Source: Candidatus Lokiarchaeum ossiferum
GTDB lineage: Archaea; Asgardarchaeota; Lokiarchaeia; Sigyniarchaeales; Promethearchaeaceae
Reading direction: 5' to 3'
Assembly (NCBI GenBank): GCA_025839675.1
Contig: CP104013.1
Coordinates: 270,001-302,000 of the forward strand
Length of the DNA: 32,000 nucleotides
In this document: positions 7,327 to 29,971 of the stretch, in pieces
Layout of the letters: each line of letters opens with the position of its first letter
How positions within the stretch are numbered: the first letter of the stretch is position 1
Notes under the pieces: model-generated
The model's database searches: none
Seen by the model: the letters and a program-made list of their open reading frames with translations, nothing else
Told to the model about the DNA's origin: nothing
Made by a program: the position numbers and the translations under genes

Positions 7327-8010
7327 CTATTTAAGTAGCTTATTTTTAATTTTTCTTATATTTTCATCATCTAAAGCTACTAATTTCAAGTAATGATCGA
7401 TATTGTCGAACTTTTCTTTAAATAAAGAGAGAGTTTTTAATATATATTCCTTTTTTGATTGACCAACAAAAGATGGAAGGTCAGAATATTTTTCATGAAG
7501 CGCTTTTATTTGTTCATATAAATTGGTTGCTGAAATTTCGTAATCCTCGCAAATTTCTTTTTCATCAACATCAGCAATAAGTAGTAAAAGCATAATGATA
7601 ATTCCAGTGCGATCTTTTCCAGCATTACAATTTATTAAAACTCCATCAGGGGCTTCTGCAATTCTTGTTAGAATTTTCCGTATAGATTCAAAATCATTGA
7701 TTATTTCAATATACCCAAGTGGTATCAATTCTTCCGATTCTGGAAATCCACTTCCTTTGGTTGGGATATTATAATAGAAAAACCCTTCACTATTTAGATC
7801 ATTTGGATTGTTCTTCACATCATCAGGTTCTCTTAGATCGATAACAGTTGTAATTTTTTTTTCTAATAGAAATTCTTTTTCCGATTGATCTATGTTAACA
7901 GGTAGATTTGATCGAATGAAACGATATTCTTTTATGAAATGACCTGATTTTGTTTGAATTCCGCCAATATCTCTCATGTTACTGACATTTTTGCATAAAA
8001 TTCTTCTCAT
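7327..8010 (-). CDS. Protein tyrosine (dual-specificity) phosphatase, Y_phosphatase3-like
   Basis: 227 aa. VLINCNAGKDRTGIII is a CX5R(S/T) P-loop. ATG start. Confidence 0.85.
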   Translation of the reverse strand: MRRILCKNVSNMRDIGGIQTKSGHFIKEYRFIRSNLPVNIDQSEKEFLLEKKITTVIDLREPDDVKNNPNDLNSEGFFYYNIPTKGSGFPESEELIPLGYIEIINDFESIRKILTRIAEAPDGVLINCNAGKDRTGIIIMLLLLIADVDEKEICEDYEISATNLYEQIKALHEKYSDLPSFVGQSKKEYILKTLSLFKEKFDNIDHYLKLVALDDENIRKIKNKLLK

Positions 8011-8562: not shown

Positions 8563-9498
8563 ATGAATGATGATATCATTAAATATCAAGATACGGAACT
8601 ACATTACAAAGAAGTAAAATTTTTACAGGATTTGGAAGAGTTAACGCATAGAAAAATCCCTTGTCGTGAGAAATTTACCACAAAAAAATTTGGTTTCACT
8701 GCAGAGGGTTACCACATAATAGAATTACAATTAATTGATAGTGGGTTAACTCATCTTCCTTATTCGATTGGAAATTTAGAGAAACTTGAGACTATGTATC
8801 TCATTAAAAATAGATTAGAGGATTTACCTGACTCCTTTAGGCATCTGAAAAATCTGGAAGAATTACTCCTAAATTCAAATAAATTTACAGAAATCCCCAA
8901 ATATTTAGGAGAATTATCGAATCTTCGGATTTTAAATTTGGATGATAATTACATTACTCATATTCCAGAATCAATTTGTTCTTTACGAACGCTTAAAAGT
9001 CTGGACATCTTGAAAAATCAAGTCGAAACTCTCCCCGTTTGCATTGGAAATATGAAAAGTCTCAACCATCTGAATCTTCGTGATAACAGTCTTTCAGAAT
9101 TACCTGAATCCTTCGGCAATCTCTCTAATTTGTTCGAATTGAATCTAAGTTGTAATAAAATTACAAATTTACCAAATTCTATTGGTAGTTTACGTAATTT
9201 GAATTCGTTATTTTTAGGGGATAATTCTCTAAAAAAATTTCCCGATTCTTTTGCTAATTTAAAAAATCTGAAGGTTTTAAATGTTTCCGATAATCCACTC
9301 ACCGAAATCCCAAGTAAGTTTCATTCTCTTTCATCTCTTGAAGATTTGAATCTCAATAACACCAACGTGAAAAATTTACTTGAATATGTCAAAACTCTTC
9401 CCTCCTTGAAACGATTAGAAATAAAAAAAGTCAACCTTTCAGATGCCGATAAAAAACTAATTGTCACAACTTTAATGAATTGCAAAATCAGATATTAA
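8563..9498 (+). CDS. Leucine-rich repeat (LRR) protein, stand-alone
   Basis: 311 aa. About ten tandem 23-residue repeats of form LxxLxLxxNxLxxLPxSIGxLxN, for example LRNLNSLFLGDNSLKKFPDSFAN and LKNLKVLNVSDNPLTEIPSKFHS. Confidence 0.9.
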   Translation: MNDDIIKYQDTELHYKEVKFLQDLEELTHRKIPCREKFTTKKFGFTAEGYHIIELQLIDSGLTHLPYSIGNLEKLETMYLIKNRLEDLPDSFRHLKNLEELLLNSNKFTEIPKYLGELSNLRILNLDDNYITHIPESICSLRTLKSLDILKNQVETLPVCIGNMKSLNHLNLRDNSLSELPESFGNLSNLFELNLSCNKITNLPNSIGSLRNLNSLFLGDNSLKKFPDSFANLKNLKVLNVSDNPLTEIPSKFHSLSSLEDLNLNNTNVKNLLEYVKTLPSLKRLEIKKVNLSDADKKLIVTTLMNCKIRY

Positions 9499-12191: not shown

Positions 12192-13613
12192 GTGGTGAAA
12201 AGAATCAAATCTAAATTAACGGTATTTCTCTTTCACAGATCTTTGAGGATTATTGACAATATTGGATTATATCATGCATTAAATACTTCAAATTTAGTAA
12301 TTCCGATATTCATTTTTGATCCTAGACAAATAACGATGAATGAATATTTTAATTCAAATGCGTTTCAATTTTTACTCGATTCTTTAAATGATTTGCAGGA
12401 GCAATTTCAATTACTTCGTAAAAAAATCTATTTCTTCCATAATAATCCGATTTCAGTCCTGAATTCAATTTTTAAAGAATTAAAATATGATTCGATCGTT
12501 CTAAATAAAGATTACACTCCATTTTCCTTGGAAAGAGAGCAAAAAATAAGGGAATTCTGCAATAAACACAAAATTCACTTGACTGCAGTTCATGATTGTG
12601 TAATTAACAATCCTGACGTAATTAAATCTCAAAAACACACCCCCTATACGATCTTCACCCCGTATTTTAAATTTAGCAGAAAAATTCCTGTTATCGAACC
12701 ACAGGAATTTAATGAAGAAAAAAGCGATCAATTCGTTGAAATTGAATTGGGAAACGCGTTTCTCCTAAAGGAAGCAAGACAAAAATTTTTAAAATCCAAT
12801 AAGATTCCAACTCAAAAAGGAGGGAGAGAAGAAGGGATCAAGATCCTAAAATCCTTGCAAAAATATATTGATTATGACAAAAACCGCAATTTTCCAGGAT
12901 TAAATGGAACCACGGGATTATCACCTCATCTAAAATTCGGATCCATTTCTATACGGGAAGCCTATTCCCATATTAGCAAAATCCTTGGGAAAGAACATCC
13001 CTTACTCCGTCAACTTTATTGGCATGATTTTTTCACATATATTGGCTTTCATTTTCCCCATGTTTTTATCAAATCATTCAAGGAAAAATACAATCAAATT
13101 AAATGGAATAATGACGATTTGAAATTTGCTTTATGGAAACAAGGAATTACCGGATTTCCGATTGTTGATGCAGGTATGCGGGAATTAAATTCTACGGGTA
13201 TCATGCATAATAGAGTACGCATGATTGTTGCTTCATTTTTGACTAAAGACCTCCATATTAATTGGCAATGGGGAGAAAGATATTTTGCTCAAATGTTGAC
13301 AGATTATGATCCTGCATTAAATAATGGGAACTGGCAATGGGCTGCGAGCACCGGATGTGATTCTCAACCATATTTCCGGATTTTTAATCCTTGGAGCCAG
13401 CAGAAGACTTATGATCCAGATGCAATTTATATCAAGAAATGGATTCCCGAACTTGCTGACTATTCGGCAAAAATAATCCATAACCTTGAAAAAAAACGCC
13501 CAAAAGAATTACTTGAAGATGTATATCCTAAACCTATCGTTAATCATAAGAAAGAAAGAGAACTTACACTGTTCATGTTTAAAACGTTATCGGGCAAAGA
13601 AGTATCATTTTAG
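12192..13613 (+). CDS. phr: Deoxyribodipyrimidine (CPD) photolyase / cryptochrome-family flavoprotein
   Basis: 473 aa. FAD-binding-domain signatures TGFPIVDAGMRELNSTGIMHNRVRMIVASFLTKDL and DYDPALNNGNWQWAASTGCDSQPYFRIFNPWSQQKTYDPDAIYIKKWIPEL. GTG start. Confidence 0.92.
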   Translation: MVKRIKSKLTVFLFHRSLRIIDNIGLYHALNTSNLVIPIFIFDPRQITMNEYFNSNAFQFLLDSLNDLQEQFQLLRKKIYFFHNNPISVLNSIFKELKYDSIVLNKDYTPFSLEREQKIREFCNKHKIHLTAVHDCVINNPDVIKSQKHTPYTIFTPYFKFSRKIPVIEPQEFNEEKSDQFVEIELGNAFLLKEARQKFLKSNKIPTQKGGREEGIKILKSLQKYIDYDKNRNFPGLNGTTGLSPHLKFGSISIREAYSHISKILGKEHPLLRQLYWHDFFTYIGFHFPHVFIKSFKEKYNQIKWNNDDLKFALWKQGITGFPIVDAGMRELNSTGIMHNRVRMIVASFLTKDLHINWQWGERYFAQMLTDYDPALNNGNWQWAASTGCDSQPYFRIFNPWSQQKTYDPDAIYIKKWIPELADYSAKIIHNLEKKRPKELLEDVYPKPIVNHKKERELTLFMFKTLSGKEVSF

Positions 13614-16634: not shown

Positions 16635-18095
16635 TTATAATGCCGCATATATTGCAGTATCGTCATAATCACCAAAAAGAGCTTTCGCTTCTAGTGATGT
16701 AAGATCCCAACAAGTTACGGCGGCTCCTACGGGTTGAGTCAAGTCATCCCCATAATAATCATAGCTTGGGGGATGCAGATAATCAATCAATTCAAATCCC
16801 TGCTCTAAATCAATGTTTCCATACATTGTGAGAGCTTCATTGGTAAGCCATTCATACCTGCTCTTCGAATCCTTAATTGCCGTGGAATCGGCATCATTGG
16901 CCATTCCATAATAAATATAGTGATTTGTGTAGGTTACCAAATCATCTTTCTTCTCAATAGGATTTGGAGAGAAAATTGCCCACCATGGTCGTGTGTAACC
17001 CATATTCCTTACCCTATAATTATGAGCAGATGTTTCTAAGGCAACCCCTCCCGTTTCTCCATTACGTCCATCCCCTATGCCATAAATCCAAGAGCAACCG
17101 CGTACATTATTAATAATGAAATTAGTTGCTTCACTTAGTTGGTTGGTATATTGCATTACATATCTGGCGGTGAGCAAAGTACCCATCCCGAAATTTGCAG
17201 GATCACAATCTTGAGCTGGAACCATATCATTTCCAATACCCAAACCTTGATCATTCATGGCTGAAGTGACTCCGACAAATCCAGCACAGGAAGTGCTTAG
17301 GAAAGCATTTCCATTGTCAGGGTAGAACTCCATCATAATCATTTCCTCATGAGTAACATAGCTGGTAAATTGCCAATGACGACCCATGATGGTATGACCA
17401 TCGGTGGTAGCATCTTCTTGAGCAACAAATCCGCTACAAGAAAGAAAAGCGAACAAATCAATTAACCACAATAAAGGTTCCACAACAGGATACGCTAGTG
17501 CAAGAAGGGCATCCATCCCCATGTTTAATAATAATACTTGTTCGTAAGTAACTGGAACTCCCGCTGCTGTTGCTCCATCAGCAACTCCTTGTATCTCATC
17601 TAAAAATGCTTGGGGGACATAACGCGTATTATATTCAACTAACACATGGCAGAGATCTAACAATTTATACAATTTGTCATCAATACTATCTCCGCTTGCA
17701 GCTGCGACTTGATCAAGAATTTCATCGGAAACCACATTTCCGACAACGTTCTCTAAGCGACTTCGGCTGAGCACTTCATTGAATACTAAATTCAAAATCC
17801 AATCATCGGCTTCTAACATATTGAGAACGACTTCCCGCATCCAATCGTCCGAAGCTAAACGCGAAACACTGATCGGATCAAGATACCCTTGCTGGAATCC
17901 CATCTCATAAGGAGAACCTTCTAAGTGCATTAGATATTTACCAGAAATCAATTCTTCCAAATATCCTTTTCCATCTGGCGAATAAGAAATAATACTTGTT
18001 GCACTCGCTGATTGAACAAAATTTGCTAGGGAAGTCACCATCAAAAGTCCAATAAGACTAAGTGACAATACTTTTTTTCTTTGATTTTTCATCAT
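16635..18095 (-). CDS. Secreted C45-family / Ntn-hydrolase peptidase (acyl-CoA:6-APA acyltransferase-like)
   Basis: 486 aa. N-terminal signal peptide MMKNQRKKVLSLSLIGLLMVTSLANFVQSASA. G-PYE-G box (LEGSPYEMGFQQG). Candidate nucleophile region FLSCSGFVAQEDATTDGHTIMGRHWQF. G+C is markedly higher than in neighbouring genes. Confidence 0.7.
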   Translation of the reverse strand: MMKNQRKKVLSLSLIGLLMVTSLANFVQSASATSIISYSPDGKGYLEELISGKYLMHLEGSPYEMGFQQGYLDPISVSRLASDDWMREVVLNMLEADDWILNLVFNEVLSRSRLENVVGNVVSDEILDQVAAASGDSIDDKLYKLLDLCHVLVEYNTRYVPQAFLDEIQGVADGATAAGVPVTYEQVLLLNMGMDALLALAYPVVEPLLWLIDLFAFLSCSGFVAQEDATTDGHTIMGRHWQFTSYVTHEEMIMMEFYPDNGNAFLSTSCAGFVGVTSAMNDQGLGIGNDMVPAQDCDPANFGMGTLLTARYVMQYTNQLSEATNFIINNVRGCSWIYGIGDGRNGETGGVALETSAHNYRVRNMGYTRPWWAIFSPNPIEKKDDLVTYTNHYIYYGMANDADSTAIKDSKSRYEWLTNEALTMYGNIDLEQGFELIDYLHPPSYDYYGDDLTQPVGAAVTCWDLTSLEAKALFGDYDDTAIYAAL

Positions 18096-23139: not shown

Positions 23140-24645
23140 TTACACAATAAATACAGAGGTTCGAGGCATATTTTGGATGAATTCTTCGGTAAAACCAAAT
23201 TTCTGATTAAATACTTGCCAATAATGTAATTCTTCCTTATTTTTCAGGATAACTCCTGGAAAAATCTCTTTTTGGTTATTAAAAGCATCATCGGTAAATT
23301 TTTTGTCAAAGTAATCGCGTAAAATAAATTGAGAACCAACACCTTTTGAAAATTTGGCTTTATGACGCTTATATACACTCAATGGGATTATTTTCTTAAA
23401 GCTTTCTCGAATAATCCATTTTTCTAATAGTTCCCCTTCTGCTGTTTTGTAAAGTTTTACTTCTGAAGGAAAAGTAAAGGACAAATCAACAATTTCCTTA
23501 TTGAACCAAGGTGCTCGTGCTTCTATTCCAAATGCATAAGGTATTCTGTCAACCCTTTGTAAACCTGTAGAATGTTCTATTTTTAACATTTCTTCAATTT
23601 CTTTGTCAAATTGTTCAGAAGTAAGTTCTTTCAAATAATCATAACCTCCAAATAATTCATCTCCACCCTCTCCTGTCAACAATACATCCGCTTTTTTACC
23701 GATCTTTGAGCAAATATAGTACATCGGGATAGCGCTCCTTATTAGTGCAGCATCAAAAGTTTCTAGATGGTAAATTACATCATCGATAATTGGAAGCATT
23801 TCTTCTATCGTGATTTTGAAAATATGATGATTTACTTCTGGATACATCTTAGTAAAATTCTTTGCATGTTCAAGATCTGGAGAATTTTCGGCTACTACAG
23901 TATAAACATCGAGATTGGGTATATATTTCTGTGCTAATGCACATATAACGACGGAATCAATACCTCCACTTAATAGTGCAGCAACTTTACCATTCGTCCC
24001 AATTGAATTTTGAACTGCTCTATCTAAGGTTGTGGACAGTTTCTGTTTCATAATATCTAAATCATTGATAGAAGTGGTATTTTCATTAAAATTATAATAT
24101 TTTTTTAATTCAAGTCCTGTTTCCGAAAAAATCATTGCTTGTCCCGGTTCAATGGTGCGTGGTATGCCTGAAAAATGGCTGAAAATTTTCAATTCGGAAG
24201 AAATCAAAAGAAATTCTGGTTGATTCATATAATAAAGAGGATTAAAACCCATCTGATCTCTAACCGCTACAATTTCTTTAGAATTTTTTATTAAAATCGA
24301 GAATTCTCCTATCAATTGTTTAAAAAATGCAATCCCATGTTTTTTATAACCACTTTCAAGATATTTCAAATCAATATTAGTAATAGATGAATTTAATTCC
24401 TTGATTCGTTCATTTGATAAGTAACCATCTATAATTGAAAATCCTTTATTATTTATACTTACTTCCGTATTCATTTGACCTTTGTTTAAGAAAAAAATCC
24501 CCACAGAATTTGGATCGTGGTACGATAGTTTTTTGAAATTGCCACGATGGGCAATTTTTTCAGCGATTTCATGAATATGTTCTATATTGATCGGCTTTTT
24601 TTTATTCTTTTTATGGTAATACACAATTCCTGTCATTTTTTGCAC
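23140..24645 (-). CDS. Asparagine synthetase B-like ATP-dependent amide synthetase with degenerate glutaminase domain (no Cys1)
   Basis: PP-loop ALLSGGIDSVVICALA, LLTGEGGDELFGGYDY, and LQRVDRIPYAFGIEARAPWFNKEIVD. The N-terminus reads M-T-G-I (ATG 24636) where AsnB has M-C-G-I. The track start is GTG 24645. Confidence 0.85.
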   Translation of the reverse strand: MQKMTGIVYYHKKNKKKPINIEHIHEIAEKIAHRGNFKKLSYHDPNSVGIFFLNKGQMNTEVSINNKGFSIIDGYLSNERIKELNSSITNIDLKYLESGYKKHGIAFFKQLIGEFSILIKNSKEIVAVRDQMGFNPLYYMNQPEFLLISSELKIFSHFSGIPRTIEPGQAMIFSETGLELKKYYNFNENTTSINDLDIMKQKLSTTLDRAVQNSIGTNGKVAALLSGGIDSVVICALAQKYIPNLDVYTVVAENSPDLEHAKNFTKMYPEVNHHIFKITIEEMLPIIDDVIYHLETFDAALIRSAIPMYYICSKIGKKADVLLTGEGGDELFGGYDYLKELTSEQFDKEIEEMLKIEHSTGLQRVDRIPYAFGIEARAPWFNKEIVDLSFTFPSEVKLYKTAEGELLEKWIIRESFKKIIPLSVYKRHKAKFSKGVGSQFILRDYFDKKFTDDAFNNQKEIFPGVILKNKEELHYWQVFNQKFGFTEEFIQNMPRTSVFIV

Positions 24646-24649
24646 TTTT

Positions 24650-25834
24650 TTACTTATTAATTGTTAGATATTCACCCTTCAATTTTGAAGGGAGCGATTT
24701 TTGATGGATTCTACTTGCTGAAATTTTATTTCTAGTTAATAATCTCGAAAAACCTCCTTTAACCTTCTTTTGAGGAAAAGTTTGCAAATAGTTATTTATC
24801 GGAAAGCGGATTCGAGATAGAGTTCTTCCATTTTTATAAAAATTAACTCCAAGTAAACTTCCTGCGAGAGTTATGAAAGAATCAATTATTGGGGTTGGAA
24901 TGTTCAGGTATTTACCAAGAGAAGAAAGAGGTATAAGACCTGTTGGTACTTCTTCCATCAAGTATCTGTTATTTAGATCCTTTGGGGCTTTAATCTTTTT
25001 ATAGGGTTCAATAATTCTGAAAGCTTCAAAATAATTAGAGGCATTCACATTATATGAATCTCTTACCCATTGTAAAAATGTTTTTGGGCGAATTCCTAAT
25101 TTGTTTAAAATTAGACATCTTTCCTTATCCATCTCTTTAATAACATTAGCAATTTGCAAAGAAACATCTCTATAGAAAAAAAAATCATTTTTCCTGAGAA
25201 TTGCCCCTGCATTCAAAATTGAAATAGTTGGATGCAAAAGTGCCCCAATATTATTCAAACTTGTTTCTAGAATGTTTGATACAAAATTTAGTTGTGGAAA
25301 AATAGTTTTTAATTCTTTTTGAATTTTAATGTCCTCTCTTTCTGGGTAAAAACAGATGTCCAGAGAATTTTTAATTTTGATAATATCTACTCCCGAATCT
25401 GAGATTTTACGGCATGTAAATAAAAGAGATTGGGTTTCTGCAACCTTAATTCGTAAATTCGGTCGTTTCCGTTTAATAAAATTATAAACTTCAACCGCTC
25501 CAAATGTCCGTCCTGGATTTAAAATAAGAATTTGTCCATCTGATAAAGAAGGTAATATTCTTTCTATAATTTCAATATGAACATGAGCTGGGACCACTAT
25601 GAAAATGTACTTGGAATTGTGGATTAAATTAACATAATTAGGCGATATTCGCCCAATAGGGTAAATTCCCTTCATCAACCCTTTAGATACGATTTTTCCT
25701 GTTCTTAAAATAGTGCTGATGTTTTCATAAGTGCGAAACCCAAGTTTTACTTTAAATCCTAAATCCGATAAATATACAGCAAAAGCACGACCTCCATTAC
25801 CGGCCCCAATAATCGTAATTTCATTTGATTTCAT
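24650..25834 (-). CDS. Opine (octopine/nopaline) dehydrogenase-family NAD(P)-dependent oxidoreductase
   Basis: N-terminal Rossmann motif ITIIGAGNGGRAFAVYL. Central LLHPTISILNAGAI is typical of the Octopine_DH helical domain. GGGAGA RBS upstream. Unusual basic C-terminal tail. Confidence 0.6.
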   Translation of the reverse strand: MKSNEITIIGAGNGGRAFAVYLSDLGFKVKLGFRTYENISTILRTGKIVSKGLMKGIYPIGRISPNYVNLIHNSKYIFIVVPAHVHIEIIERILPSLSDGQILILNPGRTFGAVEVYNFIKRKRPNLRIKVAETQSLLFTCRKISDSGVDIIKIKNSLDICFYPEREDIKIQKELKTIFPQLNFVSNILETSLNNIGALLHPTISILNAGAILRKNDFFFYRDVSLQIANVIKEMDKERCLILNKLGIRPKTFLQWVRDSYNVNASNYFEAFRIIEPYKKIKAPKDLNNRYLMEEVPTGLIPLSSLGKYLNIPTPIIDSFITLAGSLLGVNFYKNGRTLSRIRFPINNYLQTFPQKKVKGGFSRLLTRNKISASRIHQKSLPSKLKGEYLTINK

Positions 25835-25874: not shown

Positions 25875-27635
25875 CTAACAAGTTGGTGAATTTGATAAAA
25901 AAGATTTTACATCTAATTGTTCAAATTTAGAAAATAATCTTCTTATTCGATCCTTTTCAAGCAAACGATGGCCATCTTCAGTTACACAAATACATTTACC
26001 GTCTATAATTTTAGAATTAATATTTCCAAAGTTTGATGAATCATTTTTTAGATGTGGTGCATCAAAAAATCCATTTTCGACAATTGAAGTTAAAAATTCT
26101 GGAGTCAACAAATAATTCTCACCATAATGAGATTCTCCAAAGTCTTCAATCGCGGATAAAGTTATCCGAGCTTCCTTTATCAATTCATTTTTATATCTTT
26201 GAATCTCGGGATCATTAGTTAAGTTAATTGGATCATAACTTACTTCCTCAACTACTTTCTTCGCAATTTGTGCGCTAACAATTATATCTTGAGCTTTGGC
26301 TGCATGATTCGCTTCACAATAATTTACAATATGTATGATTGAGGGTTTTACTGCCATTTGGAATAACGTTGATAAAGCTAATTGGGCTTTTGCTTCATCT
26401 GGATTGTTTGAAAAATATGATAATCCTGCTCGAGTTTCTTTTAATATATCGAATGAAGGAGATTTCAAGGGTTCTACAACCTCAATCATCGCCAATACTC
26501 GACCTAAATCCATATTGAGACTGTTACCTACAGGAGTATTAAACATCAATTGTTGAATATACGTTTTGACTCCCAGTTCTTTGGCAATTTTTGCACATAG
26601 AAAGGCATCGGCAACAACTATATGGTCTGGAGCTGCTCGAAGTCCCCATTGATGAGGATCATTAATTTCAACGGGTAAATTTCGATGAGCGTGCCACATT
26701 ATATTTTCTAAGTTTTCTTGAATCGCTAATTTTAACGGACGCTTGGATCTACCATCTAGATCAGAATACCAAAATATCGGTGTTGCAGTCCATGCATTTT
26801 TTAAATATTTTAATTGAACTTTACTATTTAATATTAAATCTTGGGTTCCAGCATATATTCTAAGTAATGGGTAATTCCCAACTTGAGCGGAAGCGTAAAT
26901 TCTTTGCAAATCTTCTGTAGTTCTAATGGGAATACCTCCAGCACCTTTATCACATTTTTCAAGTACATCTTTTCGATGAAAATATTCTTGAGCAGGTTGA
27001 TCTGGAGCTATTGATATTACATCTACTAATTTTGATTTAGCAATTTTTTTAATTTCTTCTAAAGATTGTTCTAATGAATTCAATCCAAAATGAGTTCGAT
27101 ATATCGGATTTGGGGATTTCAATTTCAGTCGTGAAAGTAAATTAGATGCTTCAATATTTTTTTTTTGAGCTGCTGGATCTTTATCTTCCAATATTGCAAC
27201 ACAATATGAAGGTGATTCTCCCCCGATGAAAATATGTTTAAAGAAATTTAATGGAATGATTTTTTCTTTCAATGCTGGTAAACATCCTAGTAAAAAAATA
27301 CGCTTTGAAAGGTTTTTTTCATGAATCTCAGAAATAAAGTTTTTAATGATTTCAAATCCAACATCCGGAGTCAATCTAAAAGATAAAGCAACAACATATG
27401 GGTTTAAATGTTGGATTTCATAAATTATTTTATCAATTGAACATGCAGGCCCCAAAAATGATGTTTGATAACCATTTTCTTGTGCAATCTTAAAAAAATT
27501 GGTTATTCCTGCAACATGAACACAACTGTCAAGACATGCTCCCAAAATGTGTTTATTTTTTGTACTCTGCATCATTTTTTTCACTTTATAACGGTGTAAT
27601 CTAATAAATTTATCTGGTAAAATCTTTTCAAACAA
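25875..27635 (-). CDS. Fusion protein: N-terminal cobalamin (B12)-binding Rossmann-like domain plus a ~430-aa C-terminal domain resembling glutamate mutase E (methylaspartate mutase) by eye
   Basis: Residues ~25-150, HILGACLDSCVHVAGITNFFKIAQENGYQTSFLG...VVALSFRL...IFIGGESP, align by eye to MutS/GlmS ([31 protein letters not shown]...CVSS...VGG). There is no CxxxCxxC, so it is not a radical SAM enzyme. Start is ambiguous: TTG 27635 or ATG 27575. Confidence 0.55.
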   Translation of the reverse strand: MFEKILPDKFIRLHRYKVKKMMQSTKNKHILGACLDSCVHVAGITNFFKIAQENGYQTSFLGPACSIDKIIYEIQHLNPYVVALSFRLTPDVGFEIIKNFISEIHEKNLSKRIFLLGCLPALKEKIIPLNFFKHIFIGGESPSYCVAILEDKDPAAQKKNIEASNLLSRLKLKSPNPIYRTHFGLNSLEQSLEEIKKIAKSKLVDVISIAPDQPAQEYFHRKDVLEKCDKGAGGIPIRTTEDLQRIYASAQVGNYPLLRIYAGTQDLILNSKVQLKYLKNAWTATPIFWYSDLDGRSKRPLKLAIQENLENIMWHAHRNLPVEINDPHQWGLRAAPDHIVVADAFLCAKIAKELGVKTYIQQLMFNTPVGNSLNMDLGRVLAMIEVVEPLKSPSFDILKETRAGLSYFSNNPDEAKAQLALSTLFQMAVKPSIIHIVNYCEANHAAKAQDIIVSAQIAKKVVEEVSYDPINLTNDPEIQRYKNELIKEARITLSAIEDFGESHYGENYLLTPEFLTSIVENGFFDAPHLKNDSSNFGNINSKIIDGKCICVTEDGHRLLEKDRIRRLFSKFEQLDVKSFLSNSPTC

Positions 27636-27698
27636 ATGTATTAAATTTAGTATGAGATATGGGAATTATTCTACAAAATCTGAATGATGAATAAATCA

Positions 27699-27730
27699 AC
27701 AACAAAATCCTTAGATTTTTTCTATGTTGT
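27699..27730 (-). promoter_or_regulatory. Stem-loop in leader copy 2: ACAACA / TGTTGT (6 bp, extendable with a bulge) with a 20-nt loop
   Basis: Homologous position to 22449-22479. Confidence 0.4.
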
Positions 27731-27803
27731 GAATAATCGGAATCTACTCGATTCAATAAGACTTTGAATAATTGCCTAGTACCATATTACTTTTAGATCT
27801 TCA

Positions 27804-27811
27804 TATATAAA
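27804..27811 (-). promoter_or_regulatory. TATA box TTTATATA (minus strand) within repeat copy 2
   Basis: Minus strand reads TTAAATTTTTATATATGAAG. Matches the archaeal TTTAWATA consensus and is conserved with copy 1. Confidence 0.45.
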
Positions 27812-28273
27812 AATTTAACTGTTGAATTTGAGACTATTAAACCAATAACTCTTCATTTATTTAAGATATTGTTAACTCAGATTAAAATACATATTCTCGA
27901 CTGTTTTATTGATCTATCTTAATCTTTAGGATGAAAAGAGATTTTTTTCTACTTTATTTAATTTTAGGTTATTTTGGCTAACTAGAGCGCCAAGCAGAAA
28001 AAAATTTTCCATTAGAGATTTTTCTAAAAATTTAATCATTCATGCGTTTATACTTATTCTATACTTGTTTATACCTAAGAAAAAAAAGACATTATCAAAA
28101 TTCAAAATATCTTAGATGATGATGGAACTGGCAGAATGGATGATAACATAATCACAAAAAAATCTGTCATGGAATTCGTTTTACATCATAATCATTATAC
28201 ATGACTGACAAATTGAAGTAATTGTAAAGTTCCTATCATTCGAATTGTGATAATTAGGTAAATATGCTGTGTT

Positions 28274-28285
28274 AAAAAAAAAAAA
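28274..28285 (-). terminator. T12 tract (minus strand) abutting the stop codon of the last sHSP gene
   Basis: A12 on the plus strand at 28274-28285. The stop TAA is at 28286-28288. Confidence 0.5.
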
Positions 28286-28870
28286 TTATTTATTTACCTT
28301 TAAAGTAATCAGTCCATTGTCAGCATCAATGGTCGGTTTGTTTTTGGGTTTAAACGGAAGTCGAATTTGTTTTTTATATTCTACCTTGTCATTTTTCCCA
28401 ATGATTTTCAATAAATCTCCTTCGATTTTTGTCTCAATATCCTTCAAACCGATTCCAGGCATTTCGAACCGATAAATGTGCGTATCATCTTTTGGTTCTC
28501 CTTTTTTTTCGTTCTTTTTTTTCTTCTTTGACAACAATAATTTTGGATTTTTTATAGATGAACCTTCCAATTCTACTCCATATTTAGAGTTTATACCTGA
28601 TACAAATCTGTTGATAGTATCCTTGTCTACATCACCTTCTATCATTATTTCTGGTTCATCCATCCCAGTTTCATATTTGTAAGATAAAGAATAACTTTTA
28701 TCTTTTTGATTTGAATCATAAAAATTTTCATAATGGGAAGAAAAATGGTAGTTATCTTTCAAAGAAGAATCTTGCTTCATTTTTTGAAATTTTTTTTCTA
28801 TATCGTTCCATTCATCATGGATTCTCTCAAATTCTTTATCAATATCGTCAAATATGCGAAATACTTTCAT
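28286..28870 (-). CDS. Hsp20/alpha-crystallin-domain protein with long acidic and poly-Lys N-terminal extension (194 aa)
   Basis: C-terminal ACD: HIYRFEMPGIGLKDIETKIEGDLLKIIGK...IDADNGLITLKVNK. GGAGGT RBS. T12 directly after the stop. Confidence 0.7.
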   Translation of the reverse strand: MKVFRIFDDIDKEFERIHDEWNDIEKKFQKMKQDSSLKDNYHFSSHYENFYDSNQKDKSYSLSYKYETGMDEPEIMIEGDVDKDTINRFVSGINSKYGVELEGSSIKNPKLLLSKKKKKNEKKGEPKDDTHIYRFEMPGIGLKDIETKIEGDLLKIIGKNDKVEYKKQIRLPFKPKNKPTIDADNGLITLKVNK

Positions 28871-28912
28871 TATTTTACCTCCTCTTTATTTGATTTAAAA
28901 AAAAACAACGAC

Positions 28913-29236
28913 TTACTCTAACTTAATTCTATAAGCATCATCCATGGGATTCTTAATTTTACCTGTGATATATAGTAAGCCTTCTTCATAATCTCCTTTT
29001 ACTGTATCTATATCAACCTCCCAAGGAAAATGTCCTGACAACGAATAATGGGCATTATCTCTTGTTGCCGATAGATCAAAATATTTTGGTAAAACTCGAA
29101 ATTTGATCTTGGATTTATCAACACCAGGTAAATGAATCTCCAAATTCCATTCTTTTTTGGTAGATTCTACATTGAAATGACTGGTGGGCGTTATTTTATA
29201 TTTTATTTCTGTTTCTTGTGCTTCTTCTTGAGTCAT
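28913..29236 (-). CDS. Minimal Hsp20/alpha-crystallin-domain protein (107 aa)
   Basis: WNLEIHLPGVDKSKIKFRVL...GDYEEGLLYITGKI, with a C-terminal I-x-L (RIKLE). AGGAGG RBS. Confidence 0.7.
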   Translation of the reverse strand: MTQEEAQETEIKYKITPTSHFNVESTKKEWNLEIHLPGVDKSKIKFRVLPKYFDLSATRDNAHYSLSGHFPWEVDIDTVKGDYEEGLLYITGKIKNPMDDAYRIKLE

Positions 29237-29248
29237 TCTTTATTCCTC

Positions 29249-29629
29249 CTAAAATTTTATTTCTTTCGCTCCATCGAAGGGATCCGGAATATGGGCTGTT
29301 ATGGTTAATAAACCACAATCATATTTGGCAGTCGTTCTCTCAGGAATGATGGTTTTTCCAAAGTTTTGATTTGCATTATACATTAATTGACCACGTTTTG
29401 CTTCCAAGTAGAACCATTTGGGAAGCGCTTTCAGTTTAATATTTTCCTTTTTTACTCCTGGTAAAGCGATTTCAAAGGTAATTATTCTTTTATCATAGTC
29501 TATGTTTCGAGTCATATCAGGAAAAACATTATATATAGATTCTTTTTTTTCTTCTTCTTGTTTTTGAGCTTCTGTCATTTCTTCTTTTTCTCTTTCTATC
29601 ATTGCCATGTTCATCATCTCCATTTGCAA
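29249..29629 (-). CDS. Minimal Hsp20/alpha-crystallin-domain protein (about 124-126 aa)
   Basis: ITFEIALPGVKKENIKLKAL...AKYDCGLLTITAHI, with a C-terminal I-K-F. Start is uncertain: TTG 29629 or ATG 29623. Confidence 0.65.
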   Translation of the reverse strand: MQMEMMNMAMIEREKEEMTEAQKQEEEKKESIYNVFPDMTRNIDYDKRIITFEIALPGVKKENIKLKALPKWFYLEAKRGQLMYNANQNFGKTIIPERTTAKYDCGLLTITAHIPDPFDGAKEIKF

Positions 29630-29635
29630 AAAAGA

Positions 29636-29971
29636 TTATTCAATTTTAACATCAAAAGCATGTTCGAGAGGATTATAACGTTTTAATTCCACCTTCAATA
29701 AGCCTTCCTCATATTTTGCTTTGCTTACATCGGGTTCAACTTTAGTAAGTTCGAGATCCAGTGCATACATTACCTCACCACGGGGAGCTCGTAATGTGAA
29801 ATAATTGGGGAGAACTCGCATATCAATGTCCTCCTTTTTTACTCCCGGAATTGCGATTTGAATGGTGACAATTTCATCTTTACTCCATACACCATAGCGA
29901 GGAGTCACTTTGTAGCGTGGATCATCACTACTTTTTTCCGTCTGGTTTTTTTCAGATTTTATAATTGACAT
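29636..29971 (-). CDS. Minimal Hsp20/alpha-crystallin-domain protein (111 aa)
   Basis: VTIQIAIPGVKKEDIDMRVL...AKYEEGLLKVELKR, with a C-terminal V-K-I. AGGAGA RBS. Confidence 0.7.
   Translation of the reverse strand: MSIIKSEKNQTEKSSDDPRYKVTPRYGVWSKDEIVTIQIAIPGVKKEDIDMRVLPNYFTLRAPRGEVMYALDLELTKVEPDVSKAKYEEGLLKVELKRYNPLEHAFDVKIE

Follow-up and report, generated by a model that had tools for sequence, protein, structure and literature searches.

A putative single-chain adenosylcobalamin-dependent isomerase with a CxHxxG ligand loop, encoded beside an opine dehydrogenase family gene in Lokiarchaeum and in many anaerobes

The stretch of Candidatus Lokiarchaeum ossiferum DNA analysed here (32,000 nucleotides, positions 270,001 to 302,000 of contig CP104013.1, GenBank assembly GCA_025839675.1; hereafter the window) has a G+C content of ~30 % and includes, on the minus strand, a gene for a protein of 566 aa in which a B12-binding domain is followed by a barrel resembling GlmE of glutamate mutase. 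We lean, though not strongly, towards the view that this protein is a single-chain adenosylcobalamin-dependent radical isomerase, that it belongs to the GlmS+GlmE superfamily but to a distinct and uncharacterised family within it, and that it shares its substrate with an opine-type dehydrogenase. The fold and the presumed chemistry are known already, and it is the ligand motif, the substrate pocket and the obligate partner that are new. The near-obligate opine dehydrogenase partner and the wide distribution of the family also go beyond what was claimed in the first-pass annotation of the window, which was made from the letters of the DNA and its open reading frames (ORFs). Residues are numbered throughout according to the 566 aa protein, and 20 must be added to obtain the numbering of the 586 aa ORF in which it lies.

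The N-terminal part had been proposed to be a B12-binding Rossmann domain, and this was borne out by profile searches and by a structural model. When a profile built from 50 family sequences was run against PDB, the matches were to the corrinoid proteins 4jgi (E=1.9e-6) and MttC (7xcn, E=5e-4) and to the B12 domains of OraE and MetH, so that significant profile matches to domains of this type were indeed found. Comparison of the family with a small GlmS alignment using hhalign gave a probability of 96 % (E=2e-9), PF02310 was matched by all 50 relatives at E<=0.01, in some cases above its threshold (e.g. P0066, 40.1 bits), and a model produced with AlphaFold2 (AF2) has five beta-alpha units in this region. 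Both Pfam and the AF2 model indicate that the cap domain is absent, as in the mutases and unlike the corrinoid modules of methyltransferases.

The loop expected to carry the cobalt ligand reads D-S-C-V-H-V-A-G (27507-27530). It had been interpreted as one in which the canonical DxHxxG spacing was lost and a Cys lay two residues ahead of the His. The Cys is indeed there and is conserved, but the spacing has not changed. In the alignments, both those made with the family profile and those with GlmS made by hhalign, Cys18 falls on the canonical Asp and His20 on the canonical cobalt-ligating His, and the loop is therefore best described, on the strength of these alignments, as a family-wide replacement of Asp by Cys with no spacing shift. 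An alignment of relatives had been suggested as a way to see which of the D, C and H positions are conserved: all 50 sequences share Cys18, His20 and Gly23, whereas the Asp four residues ahead of the His is not conserved (G in 37, E in ten, D in two and Q in one). Of the 197 relatives in which the loop could be recognised, 196 carry Cys at the Asp position, the exception being a single Bathyarchaeia sequence with Asp. The Asp of DxHxxG normally hydrogen-bonds the cobalt-ligating His, and His20 is the predicted lower axial ligand of the cobalt. The SxL region is also retained, in the form S-[YF]-R-L-T, with Ser65 nearly invariant and Leu68 invariant.

For the remainder of the protein, it was the predicted structure that identified the closest known fold. 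The AF2 model, which was built with the family alignment (mean predicted local distance difference test score 91, predicted TM-score 0.82), shows a Rossmann domain with five strands joined to a barrel with eight, and the top Foldseek match in PDB was GlmE (1cb7_B, E=7.8e-16, target-normalised TM-score 0.65, with ~12 % identity), followed by a second GlmE structure (6h9e_B) and then by the second-best folds, KamD and OraE (E=1e-10 for this pair), and the methylmalonyl-CoA mutase (MCM) family. All of the top fold matches are adenosylcobalamin mutase barrels, and no methyltransferase or uroporphyrinogen decarboxylase (URO-D) barrel was among the top 50 from PDB. Hence, the outcome that would have counted against the original proposal, namely a corrinoid methyltransferase or URO-D-like C-terminal domain, was not the one obtained. 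PF06368 (MutE) was matched by 19 of the 50 relatives (best E=3e-9). Sequence searches were less informative: PDB searches returned noise only with the Lokiarchaeum protein and a match to the B12 domain only with its relative P0084, and because the family profile also failed to reach GlmE by sequence, the link to GlmE had to be made using the fold search and hhalign. The hhalign comparison with one GlmE sequence was not significant; significance came with an alignment of ten GlmE sequences (those of E. coli O157 and C. cochlearium together with plasmid-borne homologues), with a local E value of 1.6e-5 over 361 columns and a global probability of 93 %. Three blocks that had been matched by eye, LLRIYAGTQD with LQARHGTPD, INDPHQWGL with INREPFGPL and AKELGVK with AEQGVK, were reproduced in this alignment and are supported by the fold. 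The combination that is the hallmark of adenosylcobalamin isomerases, a Rossmann domain with a His ligand loop together with a TIM barrel, is thus present in the model. The sequence does not contain the CxxxCxxC motif of a radical S-adenosylmethionine (SAM) [4Fe-4S] cluster, as had been noted, and this rules out a B12-binding radical SAM enzyme.

Although the fold is that of GlmE, the substrate pocket is not. In GlmE, Arg66, Arg100 and Arg149 clamp the glutamate and Glu171 binds its amino group. By profile alignment at 12–13 % identity, rather than by structural superposition, these three Arg correspond to His162, Gln196 and Tyr241, all of them invariant in the family, and Glu171 corresponds to a small residue (Thr/Ala263). 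Further invariant Arg are found at positions 160 and 239, each two residues earlier in the same strands, and at 276, 313 and 382, and the invariant set of the 50-sequence alignment also includes several His, Asp, Asn, Gln and Trp. What is retained is Glu421, which aligns with GlmE Glu330, where the ribose of the adenosyl group is held. A gene for methylaspartate ammonia-lyase was found at none of 81 loci (80 further loci and the window, all subjected to our own ORF analysis). Since the Arg claw and Glu171 are replaced and no methylaspartase accompanies the family at these loci, the substrate should differ from that of glutamate mutase, and, as judged from sequence, the function of the protein is not that of a glutamate mutase.

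The gene immediately downstream encodes a member of the opine dehydrogenase family, the product of which matches N-(1-D-carboxyethyl)-L-norvaline dehydrogenase (CENDH, 1bg6) with E=2.1e-57 over 340 residues in a phmmer search of PDB. A homologue of this dehydrogenase gene is directly adjacent to the mutase-like gene and on the same strand in 72 of the 81 loci, lying downstream in 40 and upstream in 32, and the two are mostly either separated by <20 nt or overlap by 4 nt. Of the nine loci without an adjacent dehydrogenase gene, most offer little or no sequence beyond the mutase-like gene on one of its two sides. Across the 81 loci, the dehydrogenase gene is the only conserved neighbour.

Two further lines of evidence point to the use of adenosylcobalamin. 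Three representatives of the family (P0141, P0143 and P0144) are fused to PF13941 (E values from 1e-55 to 1e-82), the MutL/GlmL family, to which the reactivase or chaperone of glutamate mutase belongs, and the sequences of P0141 and P0143 retain CxHxxG. In an Anaerolineae locus (L082), the dehydrogenase-mutase pair is immediately preceded by a MutL gene that is full-length and not fused (E=2.9e-175), and one is also found upstream of the mutase gene in L043. In addition, sister subfamilies of ~620 aa carry the canonical DxHxxG, as DPHTQG in P0166, DPHTEG in P0154 and DAHTLG in P0175. An opine dehydrogenase gene lies alongside P0166 and P0175, both loci having been checked, and a dehydrogenase gene adjoins the mutase gene in every sister clade examined that is not fused to MutL. 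As the DxHxxG clades share the dehydrogenase partner, the pairing is older than the change from Asp to Cys, and the Cys clade would then descend from bona fide His-on B12 binders.

Relatives were found in at least 596 genomes in a scan of one genome per species, and an exhaustive hidden Markov model (HMM) search yielded 985 representatives at 50 % identity, of which 642 had E<=1e-10. Those from archaea come from Asgard lineages, Bathyarchaeia and Theionarchaea, and the bacterial ones from many anaerobes, namely Thermoanaerobacter, Caldanaerobacter, Halothermothrix, Tissierellia, Anaerolineae, Aminicenantes, Gemmatimonadota, Melioribacter and others. Cultured carriers include Promethearchaeum syntrophicum, Caldanaerobacter subterraneus, Thermoanaerobacter, Anaerolinea and Bellilinea. 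Many of the relatives are named 'methionine synthase' by NCBI. One relative of 570 aa (P0046) is present in identical form in two assemblies (L002 and L003) with matching downstream but different upstream contexts, an Octopine_DH gene lying two genes upstream in L003 and missing from L002, which may reflect a misassembly or a rearrangement.

If the protein is an isomerase of the kind we favour, the Rossmann domain would bind the cobamide base-off/His-on through His20, with Cys18 standing in for the Asp behind the His, and the corrin would rest on the GlmE-like barrel, at its C-terminal end. Binding of the substrate would lead to homolysis of the Co-C bond, the 5'-deoxyadenosyl radical, with its ribose held by Glu421, would abstract a hydrogen from the substrate, and a 1,2-rearrangement would follow before the hydrogen was handed back. 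The substrate would not be free L-glutamate. Because the pocket is polar and rich in Arg and ligase genes are found among the neighbours, a small amino or imino polycarboxylate appears probable, which the co-translated NAD(P)H dehydrogenase would either make or consume, depending on the direction in which the pathway runs. An N-(carboxyalkyl) amino acid, that is an opine, is the candidate we favour. Opine dehydrogenases create a D-configured centre, and a D-configured amino dicarboxylate is for this reason the alternative. In a subset of genomes the product may be processed by an ATP-dependent carboxylate-amine ligase, which in Lokiarchaeum would be an AsnB-like enzyme. The fuller claim, that the family constitutes a new class of adenosylcobalamin isomerase acting on an opine-like or D-amino-dicarboxylate substrate, with a Cys-His relay to the cobalt, in at least 596 species of anaerobes, is one that we put forward tentatively and regard as possible rather than probable.

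Several observations weigh against an active isomerase of this kind. The Lokiarchaeum protein itself matches PF02310, its only Pfam match at the N-terminus, over aa 29–103 with E=4.2e-5 and 23.8 bits, which is under the gathering score of 32.1, and the GG motif is degenerate, being G-C in this protein and [GA]-[GC] across the family. The exchange of Asp for Cys in the His-Asp pair is not known to have a characterised precedent. Binding of cobalamin is argued from the fused and neighbouring MutL, from sister clades with DxHxxG and from the conservation of Glu421, and an opine substrate solely from the family to which the neighbouring gene belongs, while the pocket was mapped by the profile alignment described above. 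The association with MutL/GlmL is limited, to 2 of the 81 loci and the three fusion representatives, and the form fused to MutL has no adjacent dehydrogenase gene. The context can also be heterogeneous: on the short contig that carries P0136, genes for aconitase-family subunits were seen instead of a dehydrogenase gene. Taken at face value, the first three of these points would fit a Rossmann domain that has lost cobalamin, in which Cys-x-His, a typical metal-binding pair, holds a metal or some other cofactor or has a purely structural role, and a barrel that works with the dehydrogenase in non-radical chemistry, as a hydratase, isomerase or lyase. We consider this unlikely, as the loop keeps its His and Gly, the SxL region is retained, the sister clades combine the canonical motif with the same partner, proteins with CxHxxG are fused to the reactivase of B12 mutases and the position of the ribose-binding Glu is conserved. 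A somewhat better case, though still an improbable one, can be made for another class of adenosylcobalamin enzyme, an eliminase, a dehydratase or an aminomutase independent of pyridoxal 5'-phosphate (PLP), whose carbonyl or imine product the neighbouring enzyme would reduce with NAD(P)H. KamD and OraE are the next-best folds and the pocket, with its five invariant Arg, is very polar. Pairs of a B12 enzyme and a dehydrogenase are moreover the rule in the fermentation of ornithine and lysine, with analogies in glycerol dehydratase with 1,3-propanediol dehydrogenase and in aminomutases with a diamino-acid dehydrogenase. However, the closest fold is clearly that of GlmE, a carbon-skeleton mutase, the partner has the catalytic set of an opine dehydrogenase and not that of an alcohol dehydrogenase, and the 50-sequence alignment contains no invariant Lys that could bind PLP, which also rules out a PLP-dependent aminomutase of the KamDE/OraSE type.

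The two remaining explanations would assign the protein a familiar function. It could be a true glutamate (methylaspartate) mutase that is merely fused and feeds a methylaspartate-type fermentation of glutamate, and in favour of this GlmE is the best fold match, PF06368 is matched among the relatives, natural fusions of closer GlmE relatives in the same S-E order are known and the host organisms ferment amino acids. Yet the residues that align with the three claw Arg and with Glu171 are different, and at the Arg positions they are invariant substitutes, the identity to GlmE is ~12 %, methylaspartate ammonia-lyase is missing from all of the loci and the constant partner, an opine dehydrogenase, has no role in the methylaspartate pathway; we therefore judge this very unlikely. 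That the protein is a corrinoid-dependent methyltransferase or a 'methionine synthase', as the NCBI names and the similarity of its B12 domain to those of MetH and corrinoid proteins would have it, is scarcely credible. No homocysteine-binding, pterin-binding, cap or S-adenosylmethionine (AdoMet) reactivation domain was detected by Pfam in 50 members, the large domain folds like the adenosylcobalamin mutase barrels and not like MetH, MtaB or URO-D, and fusions to the MutL reactivase exist. The name most likely stems from a match to the B12 domain alone. The radical isomerase thus remains the reading we prefer.

Table 1. Features of the mutase-like gene and of the two genes that follow it (window coordinates)
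Feature	Position	Strand	Remarks
CDS, fused B12-binding/GlmE-like protein	25875..27575	(-)	566 aa from ATG 27575; stop codon 25875-25877; translation-checked
TTG-initiated in-frame extension	27576..27635	(-)	20 codons; probably not translated; no counterpart in 49 aligned homologues
B12-binding Rossmann (flavodoxin-like) domain	27186..27554	(-)	Residues 8-130; no helical cap in front; Pfam, profile, hhalign, AF2
Ligand loop C18-V-H20-V-A-G23 (CxHxxG)	27507..27524	(-)	Translation-checked; aligned to DxHxxG
GlmE-like (beta/alpha)8 barrel and C-terminal subdomain	25878..27128	(-)	Residues 150-566; Foldseek, hhalign, PF06368 in relatives, AF2
Beta-1 motif R160-T-H162	27090..27098	(-)	His162 = GlmE Arg66, Arg160 = GlmE Gln64; R160 and H162 invariant; translation-checked
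Gln196	26988..26990	(-)	Invariant; aligned with GlmE Arg100
Beta-3 motif R239-I-Y241	26853..26861	(-)	Tyr241 = GlmE Arg149, Arg239 = GlmE Gln147
Glu421	26313..26315	(-)	Invariant; aligned with GlmE Glu330
Opine dehydrogenase family gene (CENDH-like)	24650..25834	(-)	40 nt downstream of mutase-like gene; PF02317 E=2e-39
Asparagine-synthase-like adenylating enzyme, accessory gene	23140..24645	(-)	PF00733 E=3e-48; 4 nt after dehydrogenase gene

The positions of these features are listed in Table 1. The ORF that had been reported (25875..27635, minus strand, 586 aa from a TTG) is present exactly as described, and its first 20 codons, from TTG 27635 to ATG 27575, are probably a non-coding leader, as had been suspected. 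In the alignment of 50 relatives the homologues begin ~7 residues ahead of the first beta-strand, which corresponds to ATG 27575, and the database copy (P0001), a gene caller's product of 566 aa that is 100 % identical, begins at the same ATG. A search of NCBIfam produced no family match, and Rfam, tRNA, promoter and terminator scans of the window, including the 650 nt spacer upstream of the gene, revealed nothing relevant. This spacer (27636-28285) is AT-rich, has no ORF of at least 60 aa on the minus strand and no Rfam match or tRNA, and includes promoter-like sites at the level expected by chance.

The third gene in the row encodes an AsnB-like protein in which the PP-loop SGGIDS is intact but Thr (MTGI) replaces Cys as the N-terminal nucleophile, which suggests an ammonia- or amine-dependent ligase or an enzyme resembling beta-lactam synthetase and not a glutamine amidotransferase. 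In AsnB-like proteins encoded near the module, the residue at this position is Thr or Ala in Asgard homologues and Cys (MCGI) in some of bacterial origin. Carboxylate-amine ligases of three unrelated folds are encoded within 6 kb in 21 of the 81 loci (AsnB-like in 13, Ddl-like ATP-grasp in six and GCS2 in two). An AsnB-like gene is found in only 13 of the 81 loci and the nucleophile varies between Cys, Thr and Ala; we therefore rejected the AsnB-like gene as an obligatory third component. P0128 is fused to an ATP-grasp domain of the glutathione-synthetase/RimK type and its gene is flanked by one for an opine dehydrogenase and one for a Peptidase_C26 protein, and P0170, which belongs to a sister group with CxHxxG, has the dehydrogenase gene upstream and a Ddl-like ligase gene downstream. 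P0136 (732 aa, L107:163-4105) has a weak C-terminal match to Peptidase_M15 and is followed directly by overlapping genes for the large and small subunits of an aconitase-family enzyme, a hint that in some subfamilies an unsaturated or branched dicarboxylate is passed on to a hydratase; different subfamilies may take different dicarboxylates. In a bacterial metagenome-assembled genome (L007:6787-11880), the module is located inside a polysaccharide-biosynthesis locus with an ATP-grasp gene (weak PylC-like_N match) upstream and genes for a DegT-type aminotransferase and an acyltransferase downstream, and its product may decorate a glycan in that organism. One or two small genes for PII-like cyclic-di-AMP receptors (PF06153) adjoin the module in loci of Chloroflexota (~8800-9420 in L032, L068 and L089; L082:3193-3504; L043:1420-1740).

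Elsewhere in the window, an ORF of 486 aa (16635-18095, minus strand) has a weak match to AAT (acyl-CoA:6-aminopenicillanic acid acyltransferase/peptidase C45) and contains the G+C peak of the window (0.41 at 17001-18000). In L082, L099 and L100, clear AAT-family genes are found ahead of the mutase module, and the match in the window may not be a coincidence. An oligopeptide-transporter/AAT context, observed in L082 and L099, was rejected as a general feature of the family because only a few loci have it. Four small ORFs (194, 107, 126 and 111 aa; 28286-29971, minus strand), two of them with weak HSP20/CS-domain matches, lie in a row shortly before the operon and may encode divergent small heat-shock or CS-domain proteins, arranged in tandem. 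The window also encodes a leucine-rich-repeat protein (LRR_8/LRR_14; 8563-9498, plus strand), a protein of the tyrosine-phosphatase family (7327-8010, minus strand) and a DNA photolyase/cryptochrome (12192-13613, plus strand), which is notable for an archaeon from anaerobic sediment.

In the library of papers that was searched, none describes this family, and there was no match for a CxHxxG loop, for fusions of this kind involving GlmE-like/PF06368 proteins or for an opine dehydrogenase together with adenosylcobalamin; for Asgard archaea together with glutamate mutase there was one unrelated paper. To our knowledge, about a dozen radical rearrangements that depend on coenzyme B12 are known and new ones are rare. 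The family combines the fold of glutamate mutase with a rebuilt pocket, a Cys in place of a supposedly essential Asp and a fixed opine dehydrogenase partner. If active, it would point to a step not yet described in the amino-acid or opine metabolism of anaerobes, and if it is a new class of isomerase, a further coenzyme B12 rearrangement and a new two- or three-enzyme pathway in the amino-acid metabolism of anaerobes would be added. It would also provide a natural test case for the way in which cobalt chemistry is tuned by the residue that backs the axial His. Recognition of the family corrects the common misannotation as 'methionine synthase', and adds a potential cobamide-dependent function to those considered when inferring how far Asgard archaea and sediment communities depend on B12. 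It should thus be of interest for B12 enzymology and for the metabolism of Asgard archaea and other sediment anaerobes.

Among characterised enzymes, glutamate mutase (GlmS+GlmE) of C. cochlearium (1CB7, 1CCW, 1I9C and 6H9E) is the closest. Like the family, it has a B12-binding Rossmann domain with no cap and a (beta/alpha)8 barrel, the barrels have in common GT-x-D after beta-3 and an E-A motif with the ribose-binding Glu, and both are linked to the MutL/GlmL reactivase, the family in some lineages only. The differences are that the family consists of one chain in the order S then E, with CxHxxG in the loop and replacements of Arg66, Arg100, Arg149 and Glu171, that the identity is only ~12 %, and that an opine dehydrogenase gene, and not a methylaspartase gene, is the neighbour. 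The fusion itself, which is real, had been thought unusual, but natural GlmS-GlmE fusions in the same single-chain S-then-E order are known from clusters of the non-ribosomal peptide synthetase (NRPS) type in Roseibium aggregatum (L018) and Streptomyces sp. N50 (L013). They differ in having the canonical DSHSVG, ~40 % identity to E. coli GlmE and no opine dehydrogenase. The Roseibium protein (WP_229006650.1, 664 aa; plasmid NZ_CP045635.1, L018:4164-6158) is encoded among genes for an adenylation domain, an aromatic amino-acid lyase and an amino-acid racemase, which is a natural-product context. Such fusions are annotated merely as 'methylaspartate mutase subunit E', and the Streptomyces record is not annotated. 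A recurrent cassette on plasmids of Streptomyces (L016 and L017) and Methylobacter (L015) includes a B12-binding protein, a divergent 'methylaspartate mutase' with ~30 % identity to GlmE and asparagine synthetase A, with a glutamate-synthase-related protein and NRPS genes alongside in Streptomyces, and is probably a pathway to beta-methyl amino-acid building blocks.

Comparison with other systems is informative in part. The 2-methyleneglutarate mutase (Mgm) of Eubacterium barkeri, with its MutL-type reactivase MgmL, is also a single-chain adenosylcobalamin carbon-skeleton mutase with a dicarboxylate substrate, but its B12 domain is C-terminal and has the canonical DxHxxG; this comparison is by description and not by sequence. 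The pairing of P0136 with aconitase-family subunits recalls the dimethylmaleate hydratase step of nicotinate fermentation. Lysine 5,6-aminomutase (KamDE) and ornithine 4,5-aminomutase (OraSE), the second-best folds, likewise precede an NAD(P)-dependent dehydrogenase in their pathways, but they need PLP on a conserved Lys, and the family has no invariant Lys. The likeness to MetH is confined to the B12-binding Rossmann domain, as the homocysteine, folate, cap and AdoMet domains are absent from the family and the barrel belongs to another fold family. PylB-PylC-PylD offers an analogy of logic and not of homology, in that a radical rearrangement of an amino acid, of the glutamate mutase type, is combined with an ATP-grasp ligase and an NAD-dependent dehydrogenase, though PylB is a radical SAM enzyme and PylD is not an opine dehydrogenase. 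On the dehydrogenase side, the closest comparison is with CENDH (1BG6), which the partner resembles throughout the 340-residue match and in the catalytic His202 and Arg292; unlike CENDH, the partner has Glu in place of Asp297 and its gene is coupled to that of a B12-mutase-like protein.

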